Origin: an uncultured Clostridia bacterium
GTDB lineage: Bacteria > Bacillota > Clostridia > TANB77 > CAG-508
NCBI GenBank assembly: GCA_947590905.1
Contig: CANQCU010000003.1
Location: forward strand, 18,968-82,967
Direction of reading: 5' to 3'
Length of the DNA stretch: 64,000 nt
Under the pieces are notes generated by a model. The model worked only from the letters and a program-made list of their open reading frames with translations. It made no database searches and had not been told where the DNA came from. Both the position numbers and the translations under genes were made by a program. Below, one piece after another: positions 19,386-36,346 of the stretch (within the stretch, counting starts at the first letter, position 1; the number at the start of each line of letters is the position of its first letter).

Positions 19386-19409
19386 AAAAGACTATTCGGT
19401 GTGAATAGT

Positions 19410-19649
19410 CTAATCTTCTAAATTATCAGAGTCAAATAATGGAGAAGTATAAAACTCTCTTAAAGAAATTTTTAATGTTTTGCATACTTGATATATGACA
19501 GTTGAACTTGGATTATCAACTTTGCAATTAACAATATCTCTTAAAGTAGATGGAGGAATAGTGGACATTTCTGCTAATCGGTTAATGGTAATATCTTTTT
19601 CAGAACATAATTGTTCAATTCTTGAACTTAAAGCCTTTTTAAATAGCAT
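19410..19649 (-). CDS. XRE-family HTH repressor (Tn916 Orf9/ImmR-like position)
   Basis: Helix-turn-helix (ITINRLAEMSTIPPSTLRDIVN). Divergent from a strong sigma-A promoter with a palindromic operator. Its own terminator hairpin at 19389-19411 overlaps the stop codon. Confidence 0.6.
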   Translation of the reverse strand: MLFKKALSSRIEQLCSEKDITINRLAEMSTIPPSTLRDIVNCKVDNPSSTVIYQVCKTLKISLREFYTSPLFDSDNLED

Positions 19650-19702
19650 AAATCTCCCTCCTTTTCGTATAATATTTTATAAAAAAATAGGGAAAATTAT
19701 GC

Positions 19703-19742
19703 ACGGATATCCGTTGACTTTTACTTTTTAAGATGTTATAAT
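19703..19742 (+). promoter_or_regulatory. sigma-A promoter TTGACT-N17-TATAAT with an overlapping 12-bp perfect palindromic operator ACGGATATCCGT
   Basis: Read directly: palindrome at 19703-19714, -35 box at 19714-19719, -10 box at 19737-19742. Confidence 0.45.
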
Positions 19743-19910
19743 GGCGTAGTATATAAATTTGTATATAAATTAGCATTAGAAAAAATATTATTTTAGTGAA
19801 TTTTAGGCAGTACATTTATTCACACAATGGGAATGTATTGTCTTTTTTTAGATTTTATTATCTAAAAATGTAGTATAGTATTCTTTGTATATTTTTTTTG
19901 ATATAATACT

Positions 19911-19928
19911 TGGGAAAATAGACTATTT
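19911..19928 (+). repeat. copy 1 of the conserved motif TGGGAAAATAGACTATTT, just downstream of a TGnTATAAT-like -10 and upstream of the 175-aa ORF
   Basis: Near-identical to the motif at 21621-21639 upstream of brxA. Confidence 0.5.
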
Positions 19929-19937
19929 GAAAGGAGT

Positions 19938-20465
19938 ATGATTTATGTGATAACTATTACTAATGGAAAGGAAAAATTTACAATTAAAAAGAATAAGTTG
20001 TGGGAACGGAAAGAGTTTTTTAAAGGATTAGCAACAAAGTTTAAATATTCATATTGGGGAATAGAACTCTTATTTGTTAAAAAAGGTATAGGCAAGTTTG
20101 AAAAGATAATTAAATGTCTTCCAGATGGAGATGACATAGATAAAGAATATATAAATCTTGATAATAAACAAAGAAATTATATTCTTTTAAATGATGATGA
20201 CTATGCAGAAGTAAAAATGCTTTATGATAATATGAATACTGATATTGATTATAGAAAAGAAGCATATATTGAATCAACTTCAATATTATTTGCTTATGAA
20301 TTATATCAAAATCATATTTTAGAAGATGATACTGATGTTGATCCAGATGACATATTTTATAATTGGATAAATCAAAATTATTGTTATAAAAACTATAAAG
20401 AAGAAATATATGCAAAGGCTAAAAAGATATTGAAAGAAAAATATAATGTAGAAAACATATTATAG
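19938..20465 (+). CDS. hypothetical protein (175 aa), first gene of the cargo
   Basis: ORF preceded by aaggag. The in-frame GTG at 19947 has better RBS spacing than the ATG at 19938. No recognised domain. Confidence 0.35.
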   Translation: MIYVITITNGKEKFTIKKNKLWERKEFFKGLATKFKYSYWGIELLFVKKGIGKFEKIIKCLPDGDDIDKEYINLDNKQRNYILLNDDDYAEVKMLYDNMNTDIDYRKEAYIESTSILFAYELYQNHILEDDTDVDPDDIFYNWINQNYCYKNYKEEIYAKAKKILKEKYNVENIL

Positions 20466-20489
20466 TTAAATAGAAATGGAGTAGTAAAA

Positions 20490-21125
20490 ATGGAAGTAAA
20501 ATATATATTATTACTGATTATTGTAATTTTAATAGGTATTATTATTTATTTGATAGAACAATTAAAAAAAGCAAAAGAAGAAAATAATATTTTAATGAGC
20601 AATATTAAAATGGCAAAAAATAGAGAAGAAGATTATAGGCGTGAAAACGAAAGACTTAATTGGACTATGGAAATCAAAAAACGAACTAAAAAAGAAACAC
20701 CCAAAGAGCAATATACATCAAATAAGAATTTGAAAGTTCTTATTGGAGATTACAATAAATTAACGGTCACTAATACTAATTTAGTAATAGAAAGTTTAGG
20801 ATTAGAAACTGATATAGTTCAAAGTGGAGAAGATATAATAGAAAGAATACAAGATGGTGCAAAATATGATGTTATTATAACTAATAATGTTTATAGGGGA
20901 CATTTAGGAGGTCCAAATGTTTTGGACAAGTTAAAAGCAATGGAAAATTTTGATACACCTGTGATAATCTTAACAGTGGATCAAGATAAAAGAGATTATT
21001 ATATAAATAGTTGTGGATTTGATGAATATATACCAAAGCCATTAGATATAGAAAAAGCACAAACTGCATTAAAAAATGTAATACCTGGATTAAAGTTTAA
21101 AAAAATTAAAAGCAATAAATCATAG
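20490..21125 (+). CDS. membrane-anchored receiver-like (CheY-fold) protein with no output domain; Asn replaces the phospho-acceptor Asp
   Basis: N-terminal TM helix, then a charged coiled coil. The receiver-like block has the conserved Thr (PVIILTVD) and Lys (EYIPKPLD). At the expected acceptor position the sequence is DVIITNNVY, so Asp is replaced by Asn. Confidence 0.4.
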   Translation: MEVKYILLLIIVILIGIIIYLIEQLKKAKEENNILMSNIKMAKNREEDYRRENERLNWTMEIKKRTKKETPKEQYTSNKNLKVLIGDYNKLTVTNTNLVIESLGLETDIVQSGEDIIERIQDGAKYDVIITNNVYRGHLGGPNVLDKLKAMENFDTPVIILTVDQDKRDYYINSCGFDEYIPKPLDIEKAQTALKNVIPGLKFKKIKSNKS

Positions 21126-21130
21126 TTGGT

Positions 21131-21577
21131 TTATTGCTTTTTTCTACCTAGCAATTCATCAATAGAAAATGGTTGATATATTTTAGTAAGATTATATAAA
21201 AATGCAGTAGGTATAAGATTATGAGCATTTTCATAATGAGCATAGGCTGCTTGTGTTGTATTTATTTTTTTAGATACTTGTAGTTGTGTTAAATTATGCT
21301 TTTTTCTAATGAGGCGTAAGTTTTTGCCGATTAAGTTCAAGTCTATTTTTAAAGGTAAATAATCTATATTGTTGTTTGTAAGACCAAATAAATAATCTAA
21401 ACTAAAATTATAATGATTTGCATAATCAATTAGTCTTCTTAAAGGTATTGTGTCTTTGCCAGTCTCCCAACCTGACACAGTTGAAAAATTAACATTAAAT
21501 AAATCAGCAATATCTTTTTGTTTAATGTCTAACATCTCTCTACTTTCTTTTAGATTTTTGATTCGCATTGTACTCAC
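21131..21577 (-). CDS. XRE-family regulator with two tandem helix-turn-helix domains, divergent from brxA
   Basis: HTH 1 is IKQKDIADLFNVNFSTVSGWETG. HTH 2 is LIRKKHNLTQLQVSKKINTTQAAYAHYENA. Confidence 0.6.
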   Translation of the reverse strand: MSTMRIKNLKESREMLDIKQKDIADLFNVNFSTVSGWETGKDTIPLRRLIDYANHYNFSLDYLFGLTNNNIDYLPLKIDLNLIGKNLRLIRKKHNLTQLQVSKKINTTQAAYAHYENAHNLIPTAFLYNLTKIYQPFSIDELLGRKKQ

Positions 21578-21620
21578 CCGAATATTATTATTTCATTAAC
21601 TTGTGCTTATATTATTTTTC

Positions 21621-21639
21621 TGGGGAAAATAGACTATTT
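21621..21639 (+). repeat. copy 2 of the motif TGGGGAAAATAGACTATTT, in the brxA promoter region; a partial third copy TAGACTATTTTTC lies at 21705-21716
   Basis: Same sequence and same placement as copy 1: immediately 3' of a TATATTAT -10-like box. Confidence 0.5.
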
Positions 21640-21790
21640 TTTTTAAAAAATAATTCTAAAAGTGAGAATAATTGTTCATATAAAATAAAATTCTTGCGAA
21701 TAATTAGACTATTTTTCTTCAAATGCTTTTCAATTATAAACATATATGTTATAATTATTTTGTTGAAATTTCTTGAAAAAAGGAGGAAAT

Positions 21791-22387
21791 ATGGAAGATT
21801 ATAGTGCCAAATTAACAGGTGAGCCATTTTTATATAACGAAACAAAAATTATTGGTAGATACTTGTTAGATGGAGAAAACGAAGCAGAATTAAAAAGGCG
21901 AAATATTGAAGAAAATCTTATTAAACATAAAAAAACAGGTAGTGTTAAAAGAGTTAATGCTCCTATATTTAGAAGACTTAATGTAATGAGTAAAGAAATG
22001 CTTGAAGAATTTGTTTGTTCGGATATTGAAACAAGTAAATGTATCTTGTTATATGCCATAATGAAAACTGATAGACTTGTAAAAGATTTTATATTTGAAG
22101 TCTATAAAGATAAGTTGTTTATGAGAAAAGAATATATTGAAAAGTTTGATATAGATAACTGGTATGAAGAAAAATGTATATTAAGTGAAACACTTAAAAA
22201 TAGAAGTGAAACAACAACTGCAAAATTAAAACAAGTAATAATGAAAATATTGCAAGATTCAGGATTAGTAATAAAAGAAAAAGATAGATTTAAAATAGTT
22301 AGACCTTTATTAAAAGAAAAATATATAAATATGCTTGATAAAAATGGAGATTTAGAATATGCGAAAGCAATAGGAGGGTTGTTATGA
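21791..22387 (+). CDS. brxA: BREX protein BrxA (DUF1819)
   Basis: About 198 aa. The N-terminus YSAKLTGEPFLYNETKIIGRYLL matches the conserved BrxA start YSARLT.G.F. First gene of a canonical type 1 BREX order. RBS AAGGAGG lies 8 nt upstream of the ATG at 21791. Confidence 0.75.
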   Translation: MEDYSAKLTGEPFLYNETKIIGRYLLDGENEAELKRRNIEENLIKHKKTGSVKRVNAPIFRRLNVMSKEMLEEFVCSDIETSKCILLYAIMKTDRLVKDFIFEVYKDKLFMRKEYIEKFDIDNWYEEKCILSETLKNRSETTTAKLKQVIMKILQDSGLVIKEKDRFKIVRPLLKEKYINMLDKNGDLEYAKAIGGLL

Positions 22388-22959
22388 TGAAAAGCATAAA
22401 TACTAGATTACAAGAAATGACAAATAAATTAAGTAGTAATGAGTTGTTTGAATCAAATGGTCTAGGAAATGAAATTAACTTCCATATATTTGACTATGAT
22501 CCAGAAGATGAATATATAGTAAGAGAATATTTAGAAAATTACTTACTGAAAAAAAGTAAACTGAATATAAAAGTATTTGATATATACGATATTATTATTG
22601 AAATATTAAAAGAAAAAGGTTTTCTTGAAAAATGCTTTGACTATGAAAATAAAAAAGGAGCAAAAGCCTTAAATAGTCTTATTTCAAAAACTGTGGGAAT
22701 TGGCTCTGGAAATGATTTGATAATGAAAAAAATAAAAAGCGAAATAGAGCCTAATCAAATAATTTTAATAACAGGAATTGGGAAGTGTTATGGAATTGTA
22801 AGAGGACATACAATATTGAATAACTTACATAGTGTAGTTACGAATAATCCTTTGATAATGTTCTATCCAGGAACATACAATGGACAAAGTTTTCAACTAT
22901 TTGATAAATTAGAAAATGATAATTATTATAGAGCATTCCAATTTGTAGGAAGAAAGTAG
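22384..22959 (+). CDS. brxB: BREX protein BrxB (DUF1788)
   Basis: 191 aa. Its start ATGATGA overlaps the brxA stop. Size and position fit BrxB. Confidence 0.6.
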   Translation: MMKSINTRLQEMTNKLSSNELFESNGLGNEINFHIFDYDPEDEYIVREYLENYLLKKSKLNIKVFDIYDIIIEILKEKGFLEKCFDYENKKGAKALNSLISKTVGIGSGNDLIMKKIKSEIEPNQIILITGIGKCYGIVRGHTILNNLHSVVTNNPLIMFYPGTYNGQSFQLFDKLENDNYYRAFQFVGRK

Positions 22960-22969
22960 GAGGAGTAAA

Positions 22970-25900
22970 ATGGATGATTTAAAGAAAATATATGCAAAAG
23001 ATATTGAAAGAGAAATACAAGGAGTTATTAAAGTTGATGATGAAAGTTATATCAGTCAAGAATTAGAAGAATATGTAGTTACAGAAGAATTATTAAAACA
23101 TTTTAATAGTTTCTTTGACGCATATAATGCAGGTATAAATGGAAATACTGAAAAAATGGGAGTATGGATTTCTGGTTTCTTCGGTAGTGGTAAATCTCAC
23201 TTTTTAAAAATCATATCTTATTTATTAGAAAATAAAGTAGTTAATGGTAAGGCAGCAGTTGATTATTTTGATGACAAAATAGAAGATAAAATGCTACTTG
23301 CAGATATAAAAAGAGCAGGAAGTATTCCAACAGATGTAATCTTATTTAATATTGATTCTAAAACAGAAAATAGTAATGGAACAAAAGATAGAATACTTGA
23401 TGTTTTTGAAAAAGTATTTAATGAAAAAATGGGATTATCTATTACACCATTTGTTGCAGAAATTGAAAGACATATTATTAGTCAAGGTAAGTATGAAGAA
23501 TTTAAAAAAGCATTTGAAAGTAAAGCAAATAACTCTTGGGAAGAAATGCGTGATGGTATTCAATTTGTAGAAGATGAATTTGCAAGTGCTTATGCCGAAG
23601 TATTAGGTAAATCAGAAGAAGAAGCAAGAAATATTGTTGAAAGAACAGAAAAAAATTATACTTTATCAGTAGAAAAATTAGCAGAAAGAATAAGAGATTA
23701 CATTAAATCAAAAGGAAATAATCATCATATTGTATTCCTAGTAGATGAAATAGGACAATACATTGGAGATGATAGAAGTTTAATGTTAAATCTTCAAACA
23801 ATAGTAGAAGATTTAGGACTTGAATGTGGTGGAAAGGCTTGGGTAATCGTTACAAGTCAAGAAGCAATAGATGATGTCGTAAAAGTACAAGGAAATGACT
23901 TTTCTAAAATTCAAGGAAGATTTGATACTAAACTTTCTTTATCAAGTTCTGATATAGATGAAGTAATTAAGAAAAGAATATTAGACAAAACAGAAGAAGC
24001 AACTACAAGTTTAAAAATGATTTATGAAAAAGAAGAATCTATTATTAGAAACTTATTAACATTTAAGAATGCAACATATCAAAAAGTATATGAAGATAGT
24101 ACAGATTTTGCAGAAACATATCCATTTATTCCTTATCAATTTAAGTTATTACAAGATGTATTTACTGATATAAGAAAACACGGTTATGCAGGAAAACACT
24201 TATCAAGTGGAGAAAGATCACTACTAGGAGCATTCCAAGAAACTGCCAAAAGATTTGGAGATAGTGAAATAGGTACAATTATACCTTTCTATGCTTTCTA
24301 CGATACTATTGAACAATTCCTAGAACATCAAGTAAAAATAGTTATTAAAACTGCTATGGATACAGTTCAAAGTGGAGAATTAAAAGATATAGATGTAGAA
24401 GTATTAAAAATGTTATTTATGCTAAAAAACATTAAAGAAATACCTGCTAATATTGATAATCTATCTACTTTATATGTATCTAATATAAAAGATGACAAGA
24501 TTTCTATTAAAAAGGAAATAGCAGATTCTTTAAGAAGATTAGAGGCACAAACTTTAATTCAAAGAAACAATGATGAATATAAATTTTTAACTGATGAAGA
24601 ACAAGAAATAAATAGAGAAATAAAACAAATATTTATTGACCAAAATAGAAAAATTGATTATTTAAAAAGAATTGTTTTTGATTATATACTTACAGATAAT
24701 AAGTTTACTTATAAGAATAAACAATTCCCACTTACTAAATACATAGATAATATTAAATATTCACAAGAATATGAAATAGGTATTAGAGTAGTCACTTCAT
24801 CTCCTGAACAAGATGACACAGAAATCATTATGCAATCTGCAAGAGAAAATAAATATGTATTTGTTAAACTTGAAATATCTACTTTAATCTATGATGAAAT
24901 AACTAATTATTTACAAGTAGAAGAATATAGAAGAAGTAAAAGTGGAGTATTCCAAACACAACAAGTTGAAGATATTATAAGAGCAAAACAAAGAGAAATA
25001 GAAAAAGCAGAAGATATAATTAGAGAAAATATTAAAGAACAATTAAATGAAGCAGAAATTATTATTGCAGGAGATAGACAAAATATAAGTGCAAAAGAAG
25101 CAAAAGCAAGAGTAAATGAAGCATTAGAAATTCTAATCAATAACATATATACAAAATTCACATACATCAAACATAACTTTACTACACAAGACATTAGAGA
25201 GTTATTCCACGAAAATAGACAAAATATGTTAGGAAATGAAGTTGAATTTGTTAATCAAAAGGCTTATGACGCAATGAAAGAATATTGTGAAGAAAAAAAT
25301 GCTTTCAGTCTTCCTATGACAATTAGAACACTTTTACAAGACTTTGGAAATGCTCCTTACGGATTTTTAGATGAAGATATTTTATATATCTTAACTAGAT
25401 TATTAAAAGATGAAGTTGTATCTTTAATTTATAATAATGAAGTACAAAATATTACTTCCGAAGATACACTAACTAAAATATTAAAAAGAGATTATTATGA
25501 TAGAACAATAATAAAAATTAGACAAAAAATAGAGATAAACTTAATCAATGATTTAAAAGCCGTTGCAAGAAATGCTTTCAATGTAATCAATTTAAGAGAT
25601 GATGAAGATGGAATGGTTGAAGATTTTAAAGCAGAGTGTCTTCAAAGTACATTAAATAAATTAAATAAAATAGCAGGATACTATAATATTTCTGGAAGCA
25701 AATATCAATATCCTGGACAAGATGTAAAAGATGAAGCAACTAATTTAATGGAGAGATTATTAAAAATTAGAGATGTTGGAGAATTCTTTAAAGAAGTATC
25801 AAACTGTAAAGGAGTATTGGAAGAATTATCTCCAAAAATAGAAATGGTATTAGATTTCTTTGATGGAACACAAAAAGAACAATTTGATGAAGCCAGAAAA

Positions 25901-26497
25901 ATAATTATTATTTATGATAATAATAAGGACTACGCTGATAGAACAGAAGAACTTTCAAATGTAGTTGATAAAATTGTTTCTATATTAACATCTAGTGAGC
26001 CATATAGTGAAATACACGAACTACCAACATTAAGAAAAGACTTAATTGATTTACTTACACAAATGTATGATGTTAAATCAGAGCCAATTATTAAGATGAT
26101 AAATAATACTATTGAATATATTGAAAACGAAGTAAAACAAGCAGAAGTAGATGAAAACTTTGGAAAGAGATATATTGATACTTGCAAAAATGTTATTGAT
26201 ACATTAGAGCGTTCAAATGAATTAAAAGATATATTTGCACAACAAACTAGAATAGATCAATTAAAAGATAGTTTTATTACTGCATTAGAATATGAAAAGA
26301 GTAAGAAAAATGCTACTAACGAAGTAGGAGAAGTAATAGAAGAAAAAATTGTTAAGAGAACTATTATTAGAACTGATAGTTTAATGAATCGTACCTATGA
26401 AATAAATTCAAAAGAAGATATAGATAAATATGTAGAGGAGTTAAGAACTAAACTATTAAAAGAGTTTGAAAAGAATAATAACTTAACAATTAGATAG
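22970..26497 (+). CDS. brxC: BREX ATPase BrxC/PglY
   Basis: 1175 aa. Walker A motif GFFGSGKSHFLK near the N-terminus, as in BrxC. Large alpha-helical C-terminus. Confidence 0.8.
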   Translation: MDDLKKIYAKDIEREIQGVIKVDDESYISQELEEYVVTEELLKHFNSFFDAYNAGINGNTEKMGVWISGFFGSGKSHFLKIISYLLENKVVNGKAAVDYFDDKIEDKMLLADIKRAGSIPTDVILFNIDSKTENSNGTKDRILDVFEKVFNEKMGLSITPFVAEIERHIISQGKYEEFKKAFESKANNSWEEMRDGIQFVEDEFASAYAEVLGKSEEEARNIVERTEKNYTLSVEKLAERIRDYIKSKGNNHHIVFLVDEIGQYIGDDRSLMLNLQTIVEDLGLECGGKAWVIVTSQEAIDDVVKVQGNDFSKIQGRFDTKLSLSSSDIDEVIKKRILDKTEEATTSLKMIYEKEESIIRNLLTFKNATYQKVYEDSTDFAETYPFIPYQFKLLQDVFTDIRKHGYAGKHLSSGERSLLGAFQETAKRFGDSEIGTIIPFYAFYDTIEQFLEHQVKIVIKTAMDTVQSGELKDIDVEVLKMLFMLKNIKEIPANIDNLSTLYVSNIKDDKISIKKEIADSLRRLEAQTLIQRNNDEYKFLTDEEQEINREIKQIFIDQNRKIDYLKRIVFDYILTDNKFTYKNKQFPLTKYIDNIKYSQEYEIGIRVVTSSPEQDDTEIIMQSARENKYVFVKLEISTLIYDEITNYLQVEEYRRSKSGVFQTQQVEDIIRAKQREIEKAEDIIRENIKEQLNEAEIIIAGDRQNISAKEAKARVNEALEILINNIYTKFTYIKHNFTTQDIRELFHENRQNMLGNEVEFVNQKAYDAMKEYCEEKNAFSLPMTIRTLLQDFGNAPYGFLDEDILYILTRLLKDEVVSLIYNNEVQNITSEDTLTKILKRDYYDRTIIKIRQKIEINLINDLKAVARNAFNVINLRDDEDGMVEDFKAECLQSTLNKLNKIAGYYNISGSKYQYPGQDVKDEATNLMERLLKIRDVGEFFKEVSNCKGVLEELSPKIEMVLDFFDGTQKEQFDEARKIIIIYDNNKDYADRTEELSNVVDKIVSILTSSEPYSEIHELPTLRKDLIDLLTQMYDVKSEPIIKMINNTIEYIENEVKQAEVDENFGKRYIDTCKNVIDTLERSNELKDIFAQQTRIDQLKDSFITALEYEKSKKNATNEVGEVIEEKIVKRTIIRTDSLMNRTYEINSKEDIDKYVEELRTKLLKEFEKNNNLTIR

Positions 26498-26514
26498 TAA
26501 AAGGAGATAAGCAG

Positions 26515-27168
26515 ATGAATAAAAAAGAAAAATTACAAAAATTGATAGAAAAAGGAAAAGAGTTTATAGGGAAGAATTTAACACACAATGATTCACATTT
26601 TTGTGCTTGGAATGCCTCTGTAATTAGGTTTATTGAAAATGAATTTGGAGTTAATTCAACAGATGCAAAGCGATTAAAAGGAAGACTTTATCAACCATCT
26701 GCTTATGCACCTGGGGCAGATAATCAAAGTTTATTTGTAAAATATTTTGAAAGAGATTTAAGTAAAACATTAGAAGAATTAGAAATGATTTTTGATGATA
26801 TAGAAGAAAATAATTTTCAAGGAGAAAAGAATTTTCAAGAAGAAAAGAAAAATATTGGAGGAACAACAATTAATTTTAACATTGATAACAGCAATACGAA
26901 TACAAATACTACAAACATCAATATTTCATTTGAAAAATTAAAAGGAGATATTGAGAATGATTCATCTATTGTAAATGAGGATAAAATAGAAATATTAAAT
27001 AAATTAGATGAAATTAAAAATATACAATTAAGCAACATTCCTAAAAAGGAAAAGTGGATAACAATAAAGAAAATACTTATATTTTTACTAGATAAAGGAG
27101 TAGATTTTGCTATTGCATATTTACCACAAATATTATTACTACTTAAAATGGGAGGTATAAATGGATAA
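26515..27168 (+). CDS. uncharacterised 217-aa protein embedded in the BREX operon between brxC and pglX, with a C-terminal hydrophobic helix
   Basis: RBS aaggagataagcagatg. Its stop overlaps the pglX start (translational coupling). Asn/Thr-rich low-complexity middle. No recognised domain. Confidence 0.4.
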   Translation: MNKKEKLQKLIEKGKEFIGKNLTHNDSHFCAWNASVIRFIENEFGVNSTDAKRLKGRLYQPSAYAPGADNQSLFVKYFERDLSKTLEELEMIFDDIEENNFQGEKNFQEEKKNIGGTTINFNIDNSNTNTNTTNINISFEKLKGDIENDSSIVNEDKIEILNKLDEIKNIQLSNIPKKEKWITIKKILIFLLDKGVDFAIAYLPQILLLLKMGGING

Positions 27169-30100
27169 AACAGTATTAAAAAAATTTGCTATTGAATCAA
27201 GACAAGATTTAATGGAAAAAATTAAAAACAAAATAAAAACTTTCTATGTTGATGAAGTGTTTTCAAATGAACAAAAAGGTGAATTATATGTTTTATCTAA
27301 CGAAAAACACACATTAAGTCTAACAAATGAAGAATATAAGAAAAGAGAACTTTTAATTAAGAGAATAAAAGAATTATCATTAGAACAAGTAATAGAGGAA
27401 GCAGCGTATACTTGGTTTAATAGAATTGTTGCCATTCGTTATATGGAAATAAACGATATTCTTCCTTTAACAAAAGAAAATCAATCACTAGGAATAAGAG
27501 TATTATCATCAAAAGATAATACTCCCGATCCAGAAATATTAAAGTTTACTAATCTAACTAATCCAGATTTAGATATTGACTTTAAAAAAGAAATATATTC
27601 AGAATTAAAAGATGAAAATGATAAGTTTAAATATGTTTTATTATTAGTTTGCAAAAAATTAGGAAAAGTTATTCCACAAGTATTTGATGGTATAACTGAT
27701 TATATTGATATTTTAATTCCAGACAATTTACTTAATGATACTGGATTTATAACGAAAGTTATAAAAGATGTTCCAGAAGATAATTATAATCAGGTAGAAA
27801 TTATAGGATGGTTATATCAATATTATAATCAAATAGAAAAAGATAGAGTTATAACTTCTAAAAAGGCATATAAGAAAACAGAAATTCCTTATGCTACTCA
27901 ATTATTTACGCCAGACTGGATTGTAAAGTATATGGTTGAAAATTCGTTAGGAAGATATTGGATAGAACATAATGGAGAGAGGACATTATATCCAAGTAAT
28001 AATCTACATCAATCTTCTTCAATTATGGAAAATTGGGAACATTTTATAAAAGAGAATATAGAATACCAAGATAACAAATTAGATCCAACTAAAATTACTT
28101 TTATTGATCCTTGTTGTGGAAGTGGGCATATTTTAGTTTATGCTTTTGAAATATTTTATCAAATTTATTTAAAATCAGGGTATAACAAAAATGATATACC
28201 AGAGTTAATATTAAAAAATAATTTATATGGGTTGGATATTGATGATAGAGCAGGACAATTATCTATATTATCAGTATTATTAAAAGCAAGAGAATATGAT
28301 AAATATATATTTAATAAAGAAATTGTAAAAAAATTAAACATTATAAGCATACAAGAATCTAATACAATAAATCCAGAAATTTTAAATAATTTGAATGATA
28401 TAAATATGAAAGAAGACGCTAAAAAATTACTTGAAACTTTTAGTAATGCAAAAGAAATAGGCTCTTTAATTGTACCAAGTTGTTTAGATTACGAAAAATT
28501 AGAACAAGAAATATATAAAGATGATACAATTTTTGGAATTGAGTTAAAAGATAAATTATTGCCTTTAATTAAGATAAATAAAATATTATCAACATCATAC
28601 GATATAGTAGTTACTAATCCACCATATATGGGCGAAAGGTATATGAGCCAAAACTTAAAAACTTTTATTAAAAAATATTATGAAGTAGGAAAAAACGATT
28701 TATTTTCTGCATTCATTTTAAGAATTATAGACTTCTGTAAAAAAGATGGCTTTTCAGGAATTATATCACCTTATGTTTGGTTTTTTATAAAAAGTTATAT
28801 AGATTTACGAAAAAAGGTTTTGCAAGAAATGACTTTTAAATCTTGTATTCAATTAGAATACAATGCCTTTGAAGTAGCGTGTGTTCCAGTTGCAACTTAT
28901 ATATTGAAGAAAAGCCATTCTATTGAAAAGGGAATCTATATAAAGTTATCAGATTTTAAAGGTGCTGATAATCAGGAGCCAAAATTTTTAGAAGCAATAC
29001 ATAATCAAGAGTGTAGTTATAAATATGTAAGGAATACAGATATATTTGAAAAAATACCAAATAATACTTTTGCTTATTGGATTGGAAATAATATGCTTGA
29101 AGTGTATGCAAAGTCATTGCCATTATCTAATTATGCTACTGCTTGTGTAGGATTACAAACAAGTGATAACAAAAGATTTTTGAGAGAATGGTATGAAGTT
29201 GATATAGAAAAAATTGGCTTTAATATTAAAAATATTGAAGAATCTATTAAAACTCATAATAAGTGGTTCCCTTATAACAAAGGTGGAGGATTTAGAAGAT
29301 GGTATGGTAATGTTTTAGAAGTAGTAAATTGGGAAAATGATGGTTTTGAAATAAGAAAATATAATGAATATTTAAATTCTTCAAGAAATTCTAATATTGG
29401 TATTGCAAATACTAAATATTACTTTAAAGAAAGTGGAACTTGGGGGCTTATTAGTTCAGCAGATTTTTCAGTAAGATATTCACCAGTAGGATATATATTT
29501 GATACAGCAGGATCATCTATTTTTAGCGAAGAAAATTTAAAATACTATATAGGATTATTAAATACTTCACTTGTAAAAGAATTGCTTTTAATTCAAAACC
29601 CAACTTTAAATTTTACACCTGGAAATGTTGCAAATTTGCCAGTAATTCTTCCTGAGGTAGAAATAAAAGATTGCATAGAGAAAATTGTTGATAAAAACAT
29701 AGAAATTTCAAAACAAGACTGGGATTCTTTTGAAACAAGTTGGGATTTTGTTAAGCACCCATTATTATTGGAGGCAAATTTAACACCTAAACAAATTCAA
29801 AAAGAAGAATCTAATGGATTTCAAGTATGTAATAACTTAGAAGAAGCATATAATCATTGGACTATAAGTTGTAATAATAGATTTAAGCAACTTAAAGAAA
29901 ATGAAGAAGAATTAAATCGCATTTTTATAGATATATATGGTTTGCAAAATGAATTAACACCAGAAGTAGAAGACAAAGATATAACTATAAGATTAGCAGA
30001 TAAGGAAAGAGATATAAAATCATTTATCAGTTATGCAGTTGGTTGTATGTTTGGTAGATATTCGTTAGATGAAGATGGACTAATTTATGCAGGTGGAGAT

Positions 30101-30721
30101 TTTGACATAAATAGATATAAATTATTTAAAGCAGATGTAGATAATGTTATTCCAATAACTGATCAAGCATACTTTGGTGATGACATTGTAGAGAGATTTA
30201 AAGATTTTTTAAGAGTTGCTTATGGAATGAATACTTTTAATGAGAATCTTGACTTTATTGCAGAAGCGTTAGGTAAGAAAGGTACAGAAACAAGTGAAGA
30301 CACTATAAGAAGATATTTCTTAAATGACTTTTATAATGACCATATTAAAACATATCAAAAACGACCTATATACTGGTTGTTTGATAGTGGCAAGAAAAAT
30401 GGATTTAAAGCACTTGTTTATATGCACAGATACAATGAAAATTTAGTACCAAAAGTAAGATTAGATTATTTACATAGAGTGCAAACAACTTATGAAAAAT
30501 TATTATCAGATGTTAATTATAGACTAACAACTGATTTATCAATGACAGATAAAAAAATAGCAGAAAATAGAAAAGCAGACTTAAATGCTAAACTACAAGA
30601 AATAAAAGAGTATGATGAAAAGATAGCACATATTGCTAATCAAAGAATTAGTATAGATTTAGATGATGGTGTTAAAGAAAATTATGAGAAGTTTAAAGAT
30701 ATACTAGCGAAAATAAAATAG
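27161..30721 (+). CDS. pglX: BREX N6-adenine DNA methyltransferase PglX
   Basis: 1186 aa. Catalytic NPPY motif (VVTNPPYMGERYM), with the SAM-binding region upstream of it. Position after brxC. Confidence 0.85.
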   Translation: MDKTVLKKFAIESRQDLMEKIKNKIKTFYVDEVFSNEQKGELYVLSNEKHTLSLTNEEYKKRELLIKRIKELSLEQVIEEAAYTWFNRIVAIRYMEINDILPLTKENQSLGIRVLSSKDNTPDPEILKFTNLTNPDLDIDFKKEIYSELKDENDKFKYVLLLVCKKLGKVIPQVFDGITDYIDILIPDNLLNDTGFITKVIKDVPEDNYNQVEIIGWLYQYYNQIEKDRVITSKKAYKKTEIPYATQLFTPDWIVKYMVENSLGRYWIEHNGERTLYPSNNLHQSSSIMENWEHFIKENIEYQDNKLDPTKITFIDPCCGSGHILVYAFEIFYQIYLKSGYNKNDIPELILKNNLYGLDIDDRAGQLSILSVLLKAREYDKYIFNKEIVKKLNIISIQESNTINPEILNNLNDINMKEDAKKLLETFSNAKEIGSLIVPSCLDYEKLEQEIYKDDTIFGIELKDKLLPLIKINKILSTSYDIVVTNPPYMGERYMSQNLKTFIKKYYEVGKNDLFSAFILRIIDFCKKDGFSGIISPYVWFFIKSYIDLRKKVLQEMTFKSCIQLEYNAFEVACVPVATYILKKSHSIEKGIYIKLSDFKGADNQEPKFLEAIHNQECSYKYVRNTDIFEKIPNNTFAYWIGNNMLEVYAKSLPLSNYATACVGLQTSDNKRFLREWYEVDIEKIGFNIKNIEESIKTHNKWFPYNKGGGFRRWYGNVLEVVNWENDGFEIRKYNEYLNSSRNSNIGIANTKYYFKESGTWGLISSADFSVRYSPVGYIFDTAGSSIFSEENLKYYIGLLNTSLVKELLLIQNPTLNFTPGNVANLPVILPEVEIKDCIEKIVDKNIEISKQDWDSFETSWDFVKHPLLLEANLTPKQIQKEESNGFQVCNNLEEAYNHWTISCNNRFKQLKENEEELNRIFIDIYGLQNELTPEVEDKDITIRLADKERDIKSFISYAVGCMFGRYSLDEDGLIYAGGDFDINRYKLFKADVDNVIPITDQAYFGDDIVERFKDFLRVAYGMNTFNENLDFIAEALGKKGTETSEDTIRRYFLNDFYNDHIKTYQKRPIYWLFDSGKKNGFKALVYMHRYNENLVPKVRLDYLHRVQTTYEKLLSDVNYRLTTDLSMTDKKIAENRKADLNAKLQEIKEYDEKIAHIANQRISIDLDDGVKENYEKFKDILAKIK

Positions 30722-30732
30722 GAGGATAGATT

Positions 30733-33276
30733 ATGTTTGATGAAGTATTACAACTATTAAATGATACTTTAAATGGTGCTTTTTCAAGAGATACAGAAAG
30801 AAAAAGAACTAGAAAAATTATATTCTGGTATGATTCTAAACAAGAATATCTTGATTTTATCAATGAACTAGAATTAGACAATACAGAAATATTAAAGTAT
30901 GATAACAATAGTTTTTGGATTAGATACCATATAGAAAAAGAAGAACTTAATAAGAATATTATTATCTATCTTCCTTTTGAAAGAAAAAAAGGTATAGATA
31001 ATGACTTATTAGATTTAGAAACTGCAAATAGTGATTTATTGTTTAATCCAGATTCAACAACAATGAGATTAAAGAATTTAGGTTTAACAGATGATGAAAG
31101 AAATATAATTAAAAAATATTCAAAATTCTTTGGAAATAAGAAAAGAGAAACGGAATTTAAAAACTTTGATATTGATGAAAAGAATGCAAATAATATAGAT
31201 TTAATTATTACAGCAATAATGCTTAATATTAAGTCTATCAATGAAGATGATATTTTAAAGGAAATTATTAGATTTTATTTTGAAGATGAGAAAAAGTATG
31301 AAGAATTATTTAAGTATGGAAGCGAAGAATTTATATTAGAATTGTTTAATAATACTTTTGGATCAGATGTAAAATCTTATAAAGATTTGCCAGAAATATA
31401 TAAATCATTAGTATTTACTTATTTCGCAACAAGTTTAAAAGAGCCAAAGAAAGCAAGTAGATATAGTAAATATATACTAACTAAAAAAACTACTAATATA
31501 TATGTTTTCTTAAATAATTTAATGAGAGATAAGACAATGAAATCTTATTTTGAACACTTATCAAAAGAAATAGAAAAAGAATTTGGAATAAATGAATTAT
31601 TACAATCAATGGATATAGATGATTACATTTCAAGTGACGCTTTTGAAAGCATAGATAGATGTGTAATAAAATACATTGTTGATAAATTATTTAATGGAAT
31701 AGGAGAATATGATTTATATTCTAATTATATTGATACAAGAGAAAGTAAATATTGGTTTGATAAATTAGAAAACGAGTATAACTTATTAAAAGTTTCAATA
31801 ACATTCTTTGAAAAGATTAAAGAAATAGAAGACAAAATAAAAATAGAAGATATTGATTTATTTGCTAAAAATTATACAGAAATATTTAGCGAGATAGATA
31901 CATTATATAGAAAAGTTTACTTTTACTATGACAGTATAGAAGACAAAGATATATTTATCAATTTAAAGAACAAAATAGAGAATATCTATGTTAATGACTT
32001 TATGAGCGAATTATCTATTAAATGGAGTGATACGATAGAAAATATGAATAAATATGATTCTAATCGTATGACATTACAAAAAGATTTTTACAAAAATTAT
32101 ATTAAGCCATTTAACGATAAGAAAGATAGAATTATTGTTATAATTTCAGACGCTTTTAGATATGAATGTGCAAAAGAATTAAATAATAGACTAAAAGTAT
32201 TTGCTAGTAAATCCGATATAAAATATATGCAAGGACTTGTTCCATCATATACTAAACTTGGTATGGCAGCATTACTACCAAATAAGGAATTAGAAAGAGT
32301 TAAAGATAGTGATGATATTTTAGTTGATGGACAACCTTCTGCCAGTCTTAATGATAGAGAGTTAATATTACAAAAAGAGAATCCAGATTCTATTGCTATA
32401 AAGTATGATGACTTATATGAAATGACTAAACTTGAATGGAAAAAAGTTTTTTCTGGTAAAAAGATAGTTTATATTTATCACGATACCATAGATAATGCAG
32501 GAGAACATAACGAGAATACAATATTCACTGCTTGTGATAAAGCAATAAATGAATTAGAAAAGTTAATAAAAGATTTACATACTACTTTTAGTGGAATAAA
32601 TGCTTTTATAACTGCCGATCACGGATTCTTTTATAAAAGAGGAAAAGTAGAAAGCTATGAAAAAACAAGTAAGACTACAAATGCTACAAAACAAAAAACT
32701 AGATATTCTTATTCAGATAGTATTTCAAATGATGAGGGAATTTTATCTATCAATCTTGATTATGTATTTGGTAGTAATAGTGGGTATGTAAATATTCCAA
32801 AAGGTAATATTATATTTGCTAGACAAGGAACAGGAATAAATTATGTTCACGGTGGCATACTTCCACAAGAAATAATTGTTCCAGTTATAGACTTTAAATC
32901 AACAAGAACAAGTGATGATAGTAAAAAGGTTGGTATTACTTATAGTGGACTTACTGCTAAAATTACAAATGCTATTACTTATTTAGAGTTTTTACAAGAT
33001 AATAACATAGATGAAAATAACAAGCCTTGTAGATACCTATTACATTTTGAAGATGAAGATGGAAATAGAGTTTCTGATGAATGTACTATTATAGCCAATT
33101 ATGAAAATACAGAAGTAAAAGATAGATTCTTTAAAGAAAAGTTTGTATTTAAAAATATTGAATATGATAGAACAAAACCTTATTATTTAGTAATTATAGA
33201 TGAAGAAACTGGTATAGAAGCAAATAGAGTCAAATTCTATATTGATATTGCCATTGTAAATAATTTTGATTTTTAG
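30733..33276 (+). CDS. pglZ: BREX alkaline-phosphatase-superfamily protein PglZ
   Basis: 847 aa. PglZ-domain signature (IVIISDAFRYECAKEL). Position after pglX. Confidence 0.75.
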   Translation: MFDEVLQLLNDTLNGAFSRDTERKRTRKIIFWYDSKQEYLDFINELELDNTEILKYDNNSFWIRYHIEKEELNKNIIIYLPFERKKGIDNDLLDLETANSDLLFNPDSTTMRLKNLGLTDDERNIIKKYSKFFGNKKRETEFKNFDIDEKNANNIDLIITAIMLNIKSINEDDILKEIIRFYFEDEKKYEELFKYGSEEFILELFNNTFGSDVKSYKDLPEIYKSLVFTYFATSLKEPKKASRYSKYILTKKTTNIYVFLNNLMRDKTMKSYFEHLSKEIEKEFGINELLQSMDIDDYISSDAFESIDRCVIKYIVDKLFNGIGEYDLYSNYIDTRESKYWFDKLENEYNLLKVSITFFEKIKEIEDKIKIEDIDLFAKNYTEIFSEIDTLYRKVYFYYDSIEDKDIFINLKNKIENIYVNDFMSELSIKWSDTIENMNKYDSNRMTLQKDFYKNYIKPFNDKKDRIIVIISDAFRYECAKELNNRLKVFASKSDIKYMQGLVPSYTKLGMAALLPNKELERVKDSDDILVDGQPSASLNDRELILQKENPDSIAIKYDDLYEMTKLEWKKVFSGKKIVYIYHDTIDNAGEHNENTIFTACDKAINELEKLIKDLHTTFSGINAFITADHGFFYKRGKVESYEKTSKTTNATKQKTRYSYSDSISNDEGILSINLDYVFGSNSGYVNIPKGNIIFARQGTGINYVHGGILPQEIIVPVIDFKSTRTSDDSKKVGITYSGLTAKITNAITYLEFLQDNNIDENNKPCRYLLHFEDEDGNRVSDECTIIANYENTEVKDRFFKEKFVFKNIEYDRTKPYYLVIIDEETGIEANRVKFYIDIAIVNNFDF

Positions 33277-33287
33277 GAGGTGCAGTA

Positions 33288-35318
33288 ATGGAAGAACTTA
33301 ATGAAAAGTTAAATAAATATTTTGCAGGAAAAGTTGTAAGAAAAGATTTAACTAAAAAAATTAAAGAGGGAGCAAATGTACCTGTCTATGTTCTTGAATA
33401 CTTACTTGGTATGTACTGTGCTACTAATGATGAAAATGCAATTCTTGATGGTGTAGAAACAGTTAAGAAGATATTAGCAGATAACTTTGTAAGACCAGAT
33501 GAAGCAGAAAAAATAAAATCTAAAATAAAAGAAAAAGGTATTTATACAATTATAGATAAAGTAACGGTAAGACTTAATGAGAAATTAGATTTATACCAAG
33601 CAGAGTTTTCTAATTTAGGAATAAAAGACGCTTCTATAAGTGAAGAAATTGTTAATAAATATGAAAAACTTTTAGTTGGTGGTATATGGTGTATTATTAA
33701 AGTTAGTTATAACTATGATGACCAAGATAGACATAAAATGCCTTTTAAAGTAGCAAGTCTTGATCCAATACAACTTCCAAATATGGATTTAACTGGCTTG
33801 TTTGATGGAAGAAAACATTTTACAAAAGAAGAATGGATTGATATTTTAGTTCGTTCTATGGGAATAGAGCCATCAAAACTTACTGAAATACAAAAGTGGC
33901 ATTTTCTTGAAAGAGCAGTACCACTTGTAGAGAATAATTATAATCTATGTGAACTAGGTCCGAGAGGAACTGGTAAGTCACATATCTATAAAGAAATATC
34001 TCCAAATAGTATTTTAGTATCTGGTGGACAAACTACTGTTGCTAATTTGTTCTATAATATGGGACAAAAGAAAATAGGTTTAGTAGGTATGTGGGACTGT
34101 GTTGCTTTTGATGAAGTAGCAGGTATTACATTTAAAGATAAAGATGGAATCCAAATAATGAAAGATTATATGGCTTCTGGATCATTTGCAAGAGGAAAAG
34201 AAGAAAAAAATGCAAATGCTTCTATGGTATTTGTAGGGAATATAAATCAAAGTGTTGAAGTATTATTAAAAACATCACATTTATTTGAGCCATTCCCAAA
34301 AGAGATGGCAAATGATTCTGCTTTCTTTGACAGAATGCACTTTTATCTTCCTGGTTGGGAAATTCCTAAAATGCGACCAGAGTTAATAACAGATGAATAT
34401 GGATTTATTACAGACTATTTATCAGAATATTTTAGAGAAATGAGAAAAAGGACTTTTTCAGATTCACTAGATAAATACTTTAAATTAGGAAATAACTTAA
34501 ATCAAAGAGATGTTATAGCAGTTAGAAAGACAGTTTCTGGTTTAGTTAAATTGTTATATCCAAATGGAGAATATAGTAAAGAAGAACTTGAAGAAATACT
34601 TGCCTATGCTTTGGTAGGAAGAAGACGAGTAAAAGAACAATTAAAGAAAATAGGTGGTATGGAGTTCTATGATGTTCACTTTTCTTATATTGATTTAGAA
34701 AGTATGGAAGAAAAATTTATTTCAGTACCAGAAAATGGTGGTGGAAAACTTATTCCAGAGGGAATGCTTAAAGCAGGGCATACTTACTTTATAGGTAGAG
34801 GAACATCTGGAATGATAGGAACATATAAAATTGAAGTAGAATCTCCAAGTGGACACGGTAAATTTTCAGTTTCTGGCGTAGGTAATGATAGAGAAACAAA
34901 AGAAGCATTAAATACAGCATTTAATTATTTTAGAGCAAACAAAAAAAGTATAAGTGCTAGTATTCAAGTAGATAATGTTGATTATTTACTACATATTGAA
35001 GATTTACAAGGAGTAGGTGCTTCAAAAGATATATCTCTTGCTTCATTTGTTGCAATGTGTAGTAGTGCTTTGAAGAAACCTATACAAGGTAGTTTAGTCA
35101 TATTAGGTAGTATGAGTATAGGTGGAACAATTAGTAAAGTAGAAGAAATAGCCAATACTTTACAAGTATGTTTTGATTCAGGTGCTAAAAAAATATTACT
35201 ACCAATGTCTTCTGCTAGTGATATATCAAGTGTACCTAGTGACTTATTTTCAAAGTTTAACATAGCATTTTATAATGATCCAGAAGACGCAGTATATAAA
35301 GCATTAGGTATAGAATAA
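33288..35318 (+). CDS. brxL: BREX Lon-like protease BrxL
   Basis: 676 aa. Conserved BrxL N-terminus (VVRKDLTKKIKEGANVPVYVLEYLLGMYC). AAA/Lon-like Walker A (GPRGTGKSH). Lon-protease-like C-terminal domain. Confidence 0.75.
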   Translation: MEELNEKLNKYFAGKVVRKDLTKKIKEGANVPVYVLEYLLGMYCATNDENAILDGVETVKKILADNFVRPDEAEKIKSKIKEKGIYTIIDKVTVRLNEKLDLYQAEFSNLGIKDASISEEIVNKYEKLLVGGIWCIIKVSYNYDDQDRHKMPFKVASLDPIQLPNMDLTGLFDGRKHFTKEEWIDILVRSMGIEPSKLTEIQKWHFLERAVPLVENNYNLCELGPRGTGKSHIYKEISPNSILVSGGQTTVANLFYNMGQKKIGLVGMWDCVAFDEVAGITFKDKDGIQIMKDYMASGSFARGKEEKNANASMVFVGNINQSVEVLLKTSHLFEPFPKEMANDSAFFDRMHFYLPGWEIPKMRPELITDEYGFITDYLSEYFREMRKRTFSDSLDKYFKLGNNLNQRDVIAVRKTVSGLVKLLYPNGEYSKEELEEILAYALVGRRRVKEQLKKIGGMEFYDVHFSYIDLESMEEKFISVPENGGGKLIPEGMLKAGHTYFIGRGTSGMIGTYKIEVESPSGHGKFSVSGVGNDRETKEALNTAFNYFRANKKSISASIQVDNVDYLLHIEDLQGVGASKDISLASFVAMCSSALKKPIQGSLVILGSMSIGGTISKVEEIANTLQVCFDSGAKKILLPMSSASDISSVPSDLFSKFNIAFYNDPEDAVYKALGIE

Positions 35319-35732
35319 GTTTTAACAAATAATATGGAGAGGTAATATTGATAAAACTTTAATTATATAATGAAATGAACGCACAAATTGTAAGTATTTG
35401 TGTGTTTTTTTAATTTTTTATATCAGTACAACACAATCCGACATTTTTTTCGCAAACATTGTCGTACAATGTATTTTAGTAACATTGCCTACGGCTATGT
35501 AATTAAAGAATAATAAAGGGGTAGTGATAAGAAATAGAAAGGTTGTGGTGTAGTTTATATTCTATTTCAAATAATACATTACAGGCTTAATTTGTAGTAA
35601 TAGATGATACAAAGTTTTTAGTAGTATTTTGCTTTTGTATTTATAGGCAATGTCTTGTTGGGAGAGATTGTCTATGAGAGTAAGAAAATACTATGTAATT
35701 TGCATAGAAAAATTAAGAATCATTGAACGAGT

Positions 35733-35782
35733 CAAATTCAACTCTATTAGCAGAGGAGGATTTGACTCTTTTTTTTATAGTG
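35733..35782 (+). terminator. intrinsic terminator/attenuator upstream of the sigma-like gene
   Basis: Hairpin GAGTCAAAT ... ATTTGACTC followed by TTTTTTTTAT. Confidence 0.4.
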
Positions 35783-35869
35783 TAAGTAAACATTTAAGTA
35801 ACGGGTGTAGAGGTCCTCCTTTTATCAATTTGTTTTTAAAAAAATTCAAATTGATAGGAGGAAAGAAAG

Positions 35870-36346
35870 ATGGCAGAACGCCCAAAGAGAAGAAAATATA
35901 AGGATAATCCTTATACATTAAGTTATGTTGAAGAAAAAAATATTTATTTAGTAAGTTTTAAAGATGGCAATGGAATAAAACAAGTAATAGAAGTTAATGA
36001 GGAAATCTATAAAATATTTAATTCATTTGAATTACAAGATTTAAAAGAATTAAATGAGTATGATAGACATATAGAACATTCAGAATTATTTGAAAATACT
36101 CTTGAAATGAAAGCAAAGGACAAGCCTATTAGTGTAGAAGACCAAATAATTAAAAAAGCAACTTTTGACGAATTACAAAGAGCAATAAATAGTTTGCCAG
36201 AAACACAAAGAAGAAGAATAAAAAAATATTACTTTGCTGAAAAAAATGAATATGAAATAGCCAAAGAAGAACACACAACGCAACAAGCAGTAAATAAATC
36301 TTTAAGACTTGCAATTCAAAAATTAAAAGAAATTTTAAAAAAATAA
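35870..36346 (+). CDS. sigma-70 region-4-like HTH regulator (Tn916 Orf7-like)
   Basis: The C-terminus QRRRIKKYYFAEKNEYEIAKEEHTTQQAVNKSLRLAIQKLKE has a sigma region 4 HTH pattern. Position before xis-int as in Tn916. Confidence 0.5.
   Translation: MAERPKRRKYKDNPYTLSYVEEKNIYLVSFKDGNGIKQVIEVNEEIYKIFNSFELQDLKELNEYDRHIEHSELFENTLEMKAKDKPISVEDQIIKKATFDELQRAINSLPETQRRRIKKYYFAEKNEYEIAKEEHTTQQAVNKSLRLAIQKLKEILKK

Follow-up and report, generated by a model that had tools for sequence, protein, structure and literature searches.

The window analysed here is a stretch of 64,000 nucleotides from an uncultured Clostridia bacterium (contig CANQCU010000003.1, positions 18,968 to 82,967), in which a type 1 BREX operon lies beside three small genes, encoding a 172-aa protein, a membrane-anchored receiver-like protein (hereafter the pseudo-receiver) and an XRE-family protein with two tandem helix-turn-helix (HTH) domains, here called tHTH. 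A 17-bp motif occurs on either side of these three genes. Comparisons of sequences from related loci lead us to favour, with somewhat better than even confidence, the view that this motif is the operator of tHTH, which would act, much like Orf9, as a repressor within a mobile-element regulation module, and that BREX is separate cargo. What the first-pass annotation had described as a three-gene module upstream of BREX is most likely the regulation module of an integrative conjugative or mobilisable element of gut Firmicutes, with BREX in its cargo slot, because the order of the module is kept in related elements while the cargo varies.

Conservation of the motif and its association with tHTH

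The 17-mer GGGAAAATAGACTATTT was found at positions 19912-19928 and 21623-21639, on one strand, and these were its only two matches in the window, a count that did not change when up to three mismatches were allowed. Copy 1 (O1, CTTGGGAAAATAGACTATTT, 19909-19928, + strand; inside the segment TGATATAATACTTGGGAAAATAGACTATTTGAAAGGAG at 19899-19936) is located in a leader, just ahead of the ribosome-binding site (RBS) of the 172-aa/pseudo-receiver operon. Copy 2 (O2, CTGGGGAAAATAGACTATTT, 21620-21639, + strand; inside TATATTATTTTTCTGGGGAAAATAGACTATTTTTT at about 21609-21643) lies on the cargo-slot side of tHTH, 55 nt ahead of its start codon. The motif core, AAATAGaCTATTT (AAATAG-a-CTATTT), is a 13-bp palindrome. 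Exact 17-mer repeats are frequent in this AT-rich window, with about 22 further repeat pairs, and at least one such repeat arose in 96 of 100 Markov simulations of it. The repeat count within the window is therefore no proof by itself, since such repeats arise here by chance, and the motif was accepted as real because it is kept at both orthologous positions in non-identical relatives (n = 21 for O1 and n = 31 for O2).

The two copies that the first-pass annotation had placed at 19911-19928 and 21621-21639 correspond to this exact 17-mer, and both positions are conserved. Other details of that description had to be revised. A third partial copy (AATTAGACTATTT, 21702-21714, + strand) is unconserved in the six other BREX-bearing relatives and in BREX loci without tHTH, falls in the variable spacer of the BREX promoter region and was judged to be due to chance. 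Copy 2, described as standing just before brxA, is actually about 110 bp upstream of the extended -10 element of BREX and 55 bp from the start of tHTH. The sequence TGATATAAT, read as a -10 element ahead of copy 1, is limited to the window and a single relative (L057), and in most of the relatives it is the T-run of a terminator hairpin that comes immediately before the motif.

A scan with tHTH of one genome per species yielded 80 loci (1.09 Mb) from metagenome-assembled genomes of gut Clostridia and Bacilli (related loci are labelled with L numbers), and there are more than 1000 homologues of tHTH at E ≤ 1e-10. The overall consensus of the motif is CT[T/A]GGGRAAATAGA[C/T]TA, over 17-20 bp. 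In the 46 loci whose tHTH reaches 69% identity or more, which comprise 31 non-identical variants, the O2 consensus is TTCTAGGGGAAATAGACTAT and the distance from the O2 box to the tHTH ATG is constant, at 55-59 nt. The 75 bp or so ahead of the tHTH start are strongly conserved among relatives of at least about 70% identity, and the GGGG box upstream of tHTH is kept down to 45% identity, with variants in the relatives of 45-68%. The O1 consensus, ACTTGGGRAAATAGAtTA, was obtained from 21 non-identical relatives, in which O1 is never more than 80 nt from the first start codon of the operon. In the 80 loci, the last 120 nt before tHTH contain the 10-mer core 61 times (O2) and the last 80 nt before the operon start contain it 31 times (O1), with 31 occurrences at other places; base composition predicts about 12 occurrences in all. 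Both copies, oriented alike relative to rightward transcription, were found at equivalent positions in dozens of diverged elements carrying BREX, a type I restriction-modification (R-M) system, other cargo or none, and the core is invariant at both sites while the flanks and the neighbouring proteins have diverged to 35-60% identity. This distribution supports the motif as a functional cis-element. The alternative suggestion that the two promoters arose by duplication when the cargo was assembled does not agree with the occurrence of both copies in cargo-less elements.

A second short box, AACTTG(G/T)G(C), is located about 20 nt to the left of O2 (21598-21606) and matches the CTTGGG stretch within O1. 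Relatives of at least 70% identity keep it and distant ones lack it; it may serve as a promoter element or as an additional half-site.

The tHTH protein (145 aa; 21131-21568, or 21131-21577 as the longer frame, - strand) matches Pfam HTH_3 with 76.1 bits (cutoff 23; E-value 2.2e-21) over residues 9-63 and about 84-134. Pfam revealed neither a WYL domain in tHTH nor a BrxR-type regulator at the locus, sequence comparison with the PDB gave generic XRE matches only, and a tblastn search of plasmids with tHTH found no match. The motif stays beside tHTH in 39 loci that have no pseudo-receiver neighbour, 36 of which also have no sigma-like gene and two of which have a weak match to HTH26, the small regulator at the other end of the module. 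The gene opposite tHTH in these 39 loci is another HTH_3 gene, and the -35 element and spacer of that divergent promoter are overlapped by the motif in some of the loci, for example L075, L080 and L083-L085; the sequence in L075 is TTGGGGAAATAGACTAAAAATATGTTATAAT.

The two halves of the site also vary with the two HTH domains, a covariation that was seen directly. The HTH1 helix STVSGWETGKD, invariant in all homologues, pairs with the invariant GGGG. An HTH2 helix of the form NT(T/S)Q(A/S)xYxHYE pairs with AAATAGA, one of the form QST(I/V)SxWE or QSTISEYE (L093, L094, L096, L098, L099 and L102) pairs with (T/A)(A/T)ATACGATATTT, and further HTH2 helices pair with further right halves; the tHTH of the window is of the AAATAGAC type and the L093 protein of the TAATACGAT type. 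The fixed distance to the motif (in homologues of 45-82% identity), the persistence of the motif without the other module genes and this tracking of half-sites and HTH domains indicate that tHTH is most likely the protein that binds the motif.

The regulation module and a proposed switch

The anatomy of the module and its conservation were likewise observed directly. The gene calls of the first-pass annotation (a 172/175-aa unknown, an anchored receiver-like protein, a divergent two-HTH protein and the brx genes) proved correct by Pfam and PADLOC. With HTH26, the first three of these form a four-gene block in the order HTH26 (-), 172-aa (+), receiver-like (+) and tandem-HTH (-), which is near-unchanged in about 30 metagenome contigs (exact-protein look-ups, matched with both the ATG and the GTG starts of gene callers). 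Relatives of the 172-aa protein (47-59% identity) occur in the same four-gene block in L019, in which a type I R-M methylase rather than brxA follows tHTH, and in L026; L025 breaks off just after the receiver-like gene begins. Among the 80 loci, the pseudo-receiver gene is the convergent neighbour of tHTH in 41, HTH26 adjoins the module in 33, the 172-aa gene is present in 17 (all among the 41 with a pseudo-receiver) and brxA in 7. The genes divergent from tHTH are those of BREX (7 loci), type I R-M (L056, L060 and L064), an IS66 transposase or an ABC transporter, and in some loci tHTH is divergent directly from the gene for a sigma-70 region-4 protein, after which come the MazF and recombinase genes, with no cargo. 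The DNA from 19400 to 21900 had no match among PLSDB plasmids and phages, and no module protein scored above the curated cut-offs of NCBIfam.

The pseudo-receiver (211 aa; 20490-21125, + strand) consists of an N-terminal hydrophobic anchor, a charged helical linker and a receiver fold, the last matching Pfam Response_reg over residues 83-194 (37.0 bits, cutoff 30.2; E-value 4.3e-9); no output domain was found with Pfam. The asparagine noted earlier at the phospho-acceptor position was confirmed in all 120 homologues, which, when aligned with CheY, have D12, Y for D13, N for D57, T87, Y106 and K109. Because D57 is replaced with N and D13 with Y in 120 of 120 members, the family is, as judged from this alignment, a fixed pseudo-receiver and not a decayed response regulator. 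The conserved module contains no histidine kinase gene, and the two-component system of L019 is flanking cargo only. The 172-aa protein (19947-20465, + strand, with a GTG start; an alternative ATG at 19938 would give 175 aa) is encoded by an optional gene of the module. It had no match in Pfam or PADLOC, nor in the PDB by sequence, and its AF2 model reached a pLDDT of 93.7 with an alignment of 35 sequences (45 with 4 sequences). The idea that these two proteins form a separate small defence system found no backing in PADLOC (no model at E ≤ 0.01), and the status of the pseudo-receiver gene as backbone and of the 172-aa gene as an optional insert also weighs against it.

The stop codons of the pseudo-receiver and tHTH genes are 5 nt apart in the window (3-15 nt in relatives) with no terminator between them, which indicates that the two genes are transcribed convergently. 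In L059 (1404-4412), about 1.9 kb separate the two genes, versus the usual 3-15 nt, which suggests an insertion at the convergent junction.

At the left end of the module, the HTH_26/XRE regulator HTH26 (79 aa; 19410-19649, - strand; Pfam HTH_26, 1.3e-9) is divergent from a strong sigma-70-type promoter, TTGACT-17-TGtTATAAT (19714-19742, + strand), which has 11 of 12 consensus matches and a TG extension. A TTGACT followed 15-19 nt on by TA[TC]AAT was present in all 28 non-identical relatives. The palindrome CGGATATCCG (19704-19713, unstranded) abuts the -35 element; in the related loci (L027-L078) it likewise precedes TTGACT, often with another palindrome some 23 bp further upstream. In 24 unique operator/protein pairs, without exception, the palindrome CGGAT(A)(T/G)CCG goes with the HTH26 helix PSTL(R/Q)D and CCGAT(A/T)TCGG with PSTLRAL or TTLRS. 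We infer from this correlation that the palindromes are the operators of HTH26, although it may stem from phylogenetic co-inheritance.

Downstream of the promoter, a leader hairpin followed by a T-run (19806-19849, + strand; RNA fold -13.3 kcal/mol, z = -4.7) resembles a terminator and could serve as an attenuator. Its 9-bp stem (GCAGTACA/TGTACTGC) and a run of 6-8 T residues are conserved in 15 aligned variants. The alignment says little on structure, since the stem sequence itself is conserved, with one of nine pairs showing a double change, and the hairpin was accordingly dropped as a covariation-supported structure. All 28 variants of the interval between HTH26 and the operon follow a common plan of one or two palindromes, promoter, short leader, hairpin, motif and RBS, with 8-14 nt or a longer insert between hairpin and motif. 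No leader peptide was identified in the leader of this operon.

According to the proposed circuit of Tn916, read-through from tet(M) yields an antisense orf9 RNA, and orf7 is thereby de-repressed (PMC7288454). The Tn916-style order and orientation (attenuated operon, convergent repressor, sigma-like gene and recombinase) is matched in the window and its relatives. We infer binding, repression and the logic of a switch as follows. A single tHTH chain would read the asymmetric site, with HTH1 on GGGG and HTH2 on the AAATAGAC half, and O2 probably mediates autoregulation of tHTH. HTH26 would guard the strong promoter through its palindromic operators, transcripts from this promoter would mostly end at the leader hairpin, and tHTH at O1 probably blocks or modulates read-through into the 172-aa/pseudo-receiver operon. 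Because this operon and the tHTH gene converge, with stops 3-15 nt apart, read-through would run antisense across tHTH and lower repressor synthesis, giving a mutual-inhibition switch akin to the tet(M)-orf9-orf7 circuit. With less tHTH, expression could proceed to the cargo slot and on to the genes for the sigma-like protein and for recombination. BREX, lying between O2 and the sigma-like control region with a promoter and a terminator of its own, would not be a specific target of the motif. It is a more speculative and rather doubtful proposition that the membrane pseudo-receiver, tHTH and HTH26 make up an undescribed switch, in which the pseudo-receiver, working independently of phosphorylation, would sense an envelope or mating cue and antagonise the repressor, and read-through would boost the defence cargo; such a boost of BREX or type I R-M on induction of the element is suggested by the position of the cargo slot downstream of the repressor operator with no terminator between.

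On the other side of BREX, its terminator is followed by a backbone control region with a long hairpin leader (35377-35869, + strand; hairpins of -12.5 and -20.1 kcal/mol), which is homologous to the region between the tHTH and sigma-like genes of cargo-less elements. The part from 35430 to 35869 is conserved in L027 and nine other cargo-less loci and contains an inverted repeat, CGACA...TGTCG, overlapping a TA(T/C)AAT -10 element. The leader of the sigma-like gene is about 400 nt long, with hairpins followed by T-runs, and in cargo-less relatives one of its stems (AGCAGT...ACTGCT) resembles the stem of the operon leader hairpin. Then follow, all on the + strand, the genes for the sigma-70 region-4 protein (35870-36346), MazF/PemK (36994-37401) and a tyrosine integrase (37794-39074), assigned by Pfam, with a pemK RNA (RF02913; 36577-36657; 53.4 bits, gathering score 34.8) upstream of the MazF/PemK gene. 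This RNA was the only Rfam match at gathering thresholds in the whole window. Homologues of the sigma-like protein are present in 14 pseudo-receiver loci, 11 of which also have a MazF homologue. Upstream of the module are genes for a MobA/VirD2-like relaxase, DUF3801, VirD4/TraG, PrgI, VirB4 and a cell-wall hydrolase.

A probable BREX promoter and competing explanations

The BREX operon (brxA, brxB, brxC, a 217-aa gene, pglX, pglZ and brxL; 21791-35318, + strand) has all six core genes according to PADLOC and Pfam. Its likely promoter, TTTTCA-17-TATAAT with a TG extension, is at 21727-21755 (+ strand), with the extended -10 TGTTATAAT at 21747-21755. It is preceded by two boxes, the degenerate TGAGAATA (21663-21670) and CTTGCGAATA (21693-21702), on the same strand, which are kept in the six BREX-bearing relatives. 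The seven BREX elements (the window and these six) have two TGCGAATA boxes about 32 bp apart, then TTTTCTTCAAA and then ATATATGnTATAAT, the last of which is invariant in all seven. A metagenome scan with BrxA gave 79 loci (L107-L185), 57 of them with at least 700 nt upstream and without tHTH. Boxes of the TTGCGAATA type were found in 45 of these 57 loci, mostly near positions -130 and -98 relative to the brxA ATG and including loci with a BrxA of only 39-45% identity; about 20 of the BREX loci without tHTH also have TG.TATAAT at a comparable distance from brxA. None of the 57 loci has the GGGGAAATAG motif, and their upstream neighbours are unrelated, with no conserved regulator gene. We suggest that the TTGCGAATA boxes are a candidate operator intrinsic to this BREX lineage. 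Because the motif is absent from all 57 tHTH-free brxA loci and 45 of them keep the boxes, BREX appears to have its own promoter, of which the motif would not be part, and tHTH would not be a BREX-specific regulator. The junction of the BREX cassette is just to the right of O2. The stretch from O2 to brxA showed no terminator, so transcription of the backbone may run on into BREX.

These data bear on the proposal that tHTH is a dedicated BREX regulator, in place of a BrxR/WYL-type protein, and co-controls BREX and the two-gene operon through the motif. One part of it stood, since tHTH is the likely binder and there is no WYL protein; BREX as its target did not, given that 7 of 80 tHTH loci have BREX. 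The proposal would account for the position of the motif in the intergenic region between tHTH and brxA, transcription past O2 could enter BREX, and defence systems (BREX or type I R-M, in the loci listed above) are frequent occupants of the slot beside tHTH. However, as already described, the motif is missing from tHTH-free brxA loci, 45 of which have a different conserved promoter region, O2 is outside the cassette and far from the BREX -10 element, cargo-less elements have both copies, and no defence model fits either the pseudo-receiver or the 172-aa protein. We therefore consider a dedicated BREX regulator unlikely. It is still less probable that the motif copies lack a present function and are simply what is left of a duplicated promoter or leader segment. 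The abundance of exact 17-mer repeats in the window and a flanking similarity that reaches a few bases would suit such an origin, but the core is invariant at both sites in the 21 and 31 non-identical relatives despite the diverged flanks, and we regard this explanation as highly improbable.

Several observations weigh against an operator bound by an Orf9-like repressor. The covariation between tHTH and its site may reflect shared ancestry, both diverging along the same tree. The position of O1, downstream of the terminator and 8-20 nt from the RBS, is odd for a repressor and also fits an RNA-level element, and its right half is less conserved than that of O2 (ATTA versus ACTAT). By eye, O2 could be at about -45 to -65 of an extended -10 promoter of tHTH, where either activation or repression would fit. 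In addition, the transfer genes of the element (for a MobA/VirD2-like relaxase, DUF3801, VirD4/TraG, PrgI and VirB4) are not a set that Tn916 is known to carry. The motif might instead act as RNA, as a processing, antitermination or translation-control element in the operon leader and in read-through transcripts that run antisense across tHTH to the cargo, and an element-encoded factor might be its binder. O1 is mostly right after the terminator T-run and just before the RBS, with no promoter of its own, both copies share their orientation, and leader hairpins are abundant in the regulation region. We nevertheless give this explanation a low probability: neither intergenic region has an Rfam family at gathering thresholds, no conserved pairing partner of GGGG was seen by eye, the motif of distant relatives covers the -35 element and spacer of a divergent promoter, as is typical of a DNA operator, and the covariation with the HTH2 helix is unexpected for an RNA element. 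Anti-Shine-Dalgarno and antiterminator pairing were considered separately and rejected, no consistent pairing being found by eye. It seems quite improbable to us that the motif is bound or used by HTH26 or, in the role of a promoter element, by the sigma-70-like protein, and not by tHTH. The genes for these two factors do accompany the module, in 33 and in 14 or more loci, respectively, and by eye TTAACTT-N16-TCTAG around O2 faintly resembles an ECF-type -35/-10 pair. However, the 39 loci without a pseudo-receiver keep the motif beside tHTH, although 36 are sigma-free and two have a weak HTH26-like match; HTH26 has palindromes of its own, which covary perfectly with its recognition helix, and if O1 were a promoter, transcription would begin within the RBS or beyond it. 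The motif was rejected as a promoter of the element sigma factor, since it persists in the 36 loci without the sigma gene.

The interval between brxC and pglX looks like a variable accessory position inside BREX. In L001 (422-1059), L002 (64-701) and L007 (39-676), it contains genes for proteins of 75 and 136 aa; these three loci share the exact 145-aa regulator and the gene order of the window. The 217-aa gene of the window (26515-27168) has a weak match to PADLOC PDC-S35 over its N-terminus.

Relation to known systems and significance

As in Tn916, an XRE-type repressor gene is convergent with an upstream operon, the promoter is followed by terminator structures, sigma-like and recombinase genes follow, and accessory cargo is found within the module. 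The module differs from that of Tn916 in that its repressor has two HTH_3 domains in one chain, its operon encodes the membrane pseudo-receiver with or without the 172-aa protein rather than tet(M)/orf6, a second small repressor, HTH26, would guard the promoter, and the cargo slot is downstream of the repressor gene. The resemblance is one of layout and logic, and we do not claim membership of the Tn916 family. The arrangement also recalls BrxR/WYL regulators, with a transcription factor gene directly upstream of, and divergent from, brxA and a conserved intergenic site; unlike them, tHTH has no WYL domain, tHTH and its site belong to the backbone of a mobile element with many cargos, and related BREX operons occur without tHTH.

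The C proteins of R-M systems and the phage CI/Cro repressors are, like tHTH, small XRE proteins with sites upstream of their own genes in a divergent control region that adjoins defence or lysogeny genes, and by analogy tHTH is likely to be autoregulated. The sites of C proteins and of CI/Cro are palindromic boxes bound by homodimers, whereas a tHTH monomer would read an asymmetric site, a second site is present in a distant leader, and the context is a conjugative element. RitR-type regulators have atypical, phosphorylation-independent receivers with Asn at the acceptor position. The pseudo-receiver shares with them the replacement of the acceptor Asp with Asn and the equivalents of T87 and K109; unlike them, it has no DNA-binding output, carries a membrane anchor and a helical linker, and is encoded on a mobile element beside tHTH. 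There is a parallel by annotation with the relatives of the L040 type, which have tHTH, a sigma-like gene, two large serine recombinases and a receiver protein: in the Tn6105/Tn6103-type elements of Clostridium difficile, a sigma factor and an orphan response regulator are annotated beside serine recombinases, of which Tn6105 has two (PMC3158075). Tn6105 may be a described member of this element family, as judged from its published annotation, and the same report gives no cis-elements or regulatory model for these elements.

These results do not overturn current ideas on the regulation of mobile elements. Three features would be worth experiments. The obligate pseudo-receiver, which by its residues cannot be phosphorylated, is nevertheless strictly conserved and predicted to be anchored in the membrane, and its role is the first; the second is the way in which a single-chain double HTH would read its asymmetric site, and the third is the binder of the BREX-linked TTGCGAATA boxes. 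A presumed BREX regulator and a presumed small defence system are re-assigned here to the regulation module of common, uncharacterised elements of gut Clostridia and Bacilli. The model offered for this module comprises two repressors with assigned operators, a promoter-proximal terminator, convergent transcription and a defined cargo slot, which repeatedly holds BREX or type I R-M.

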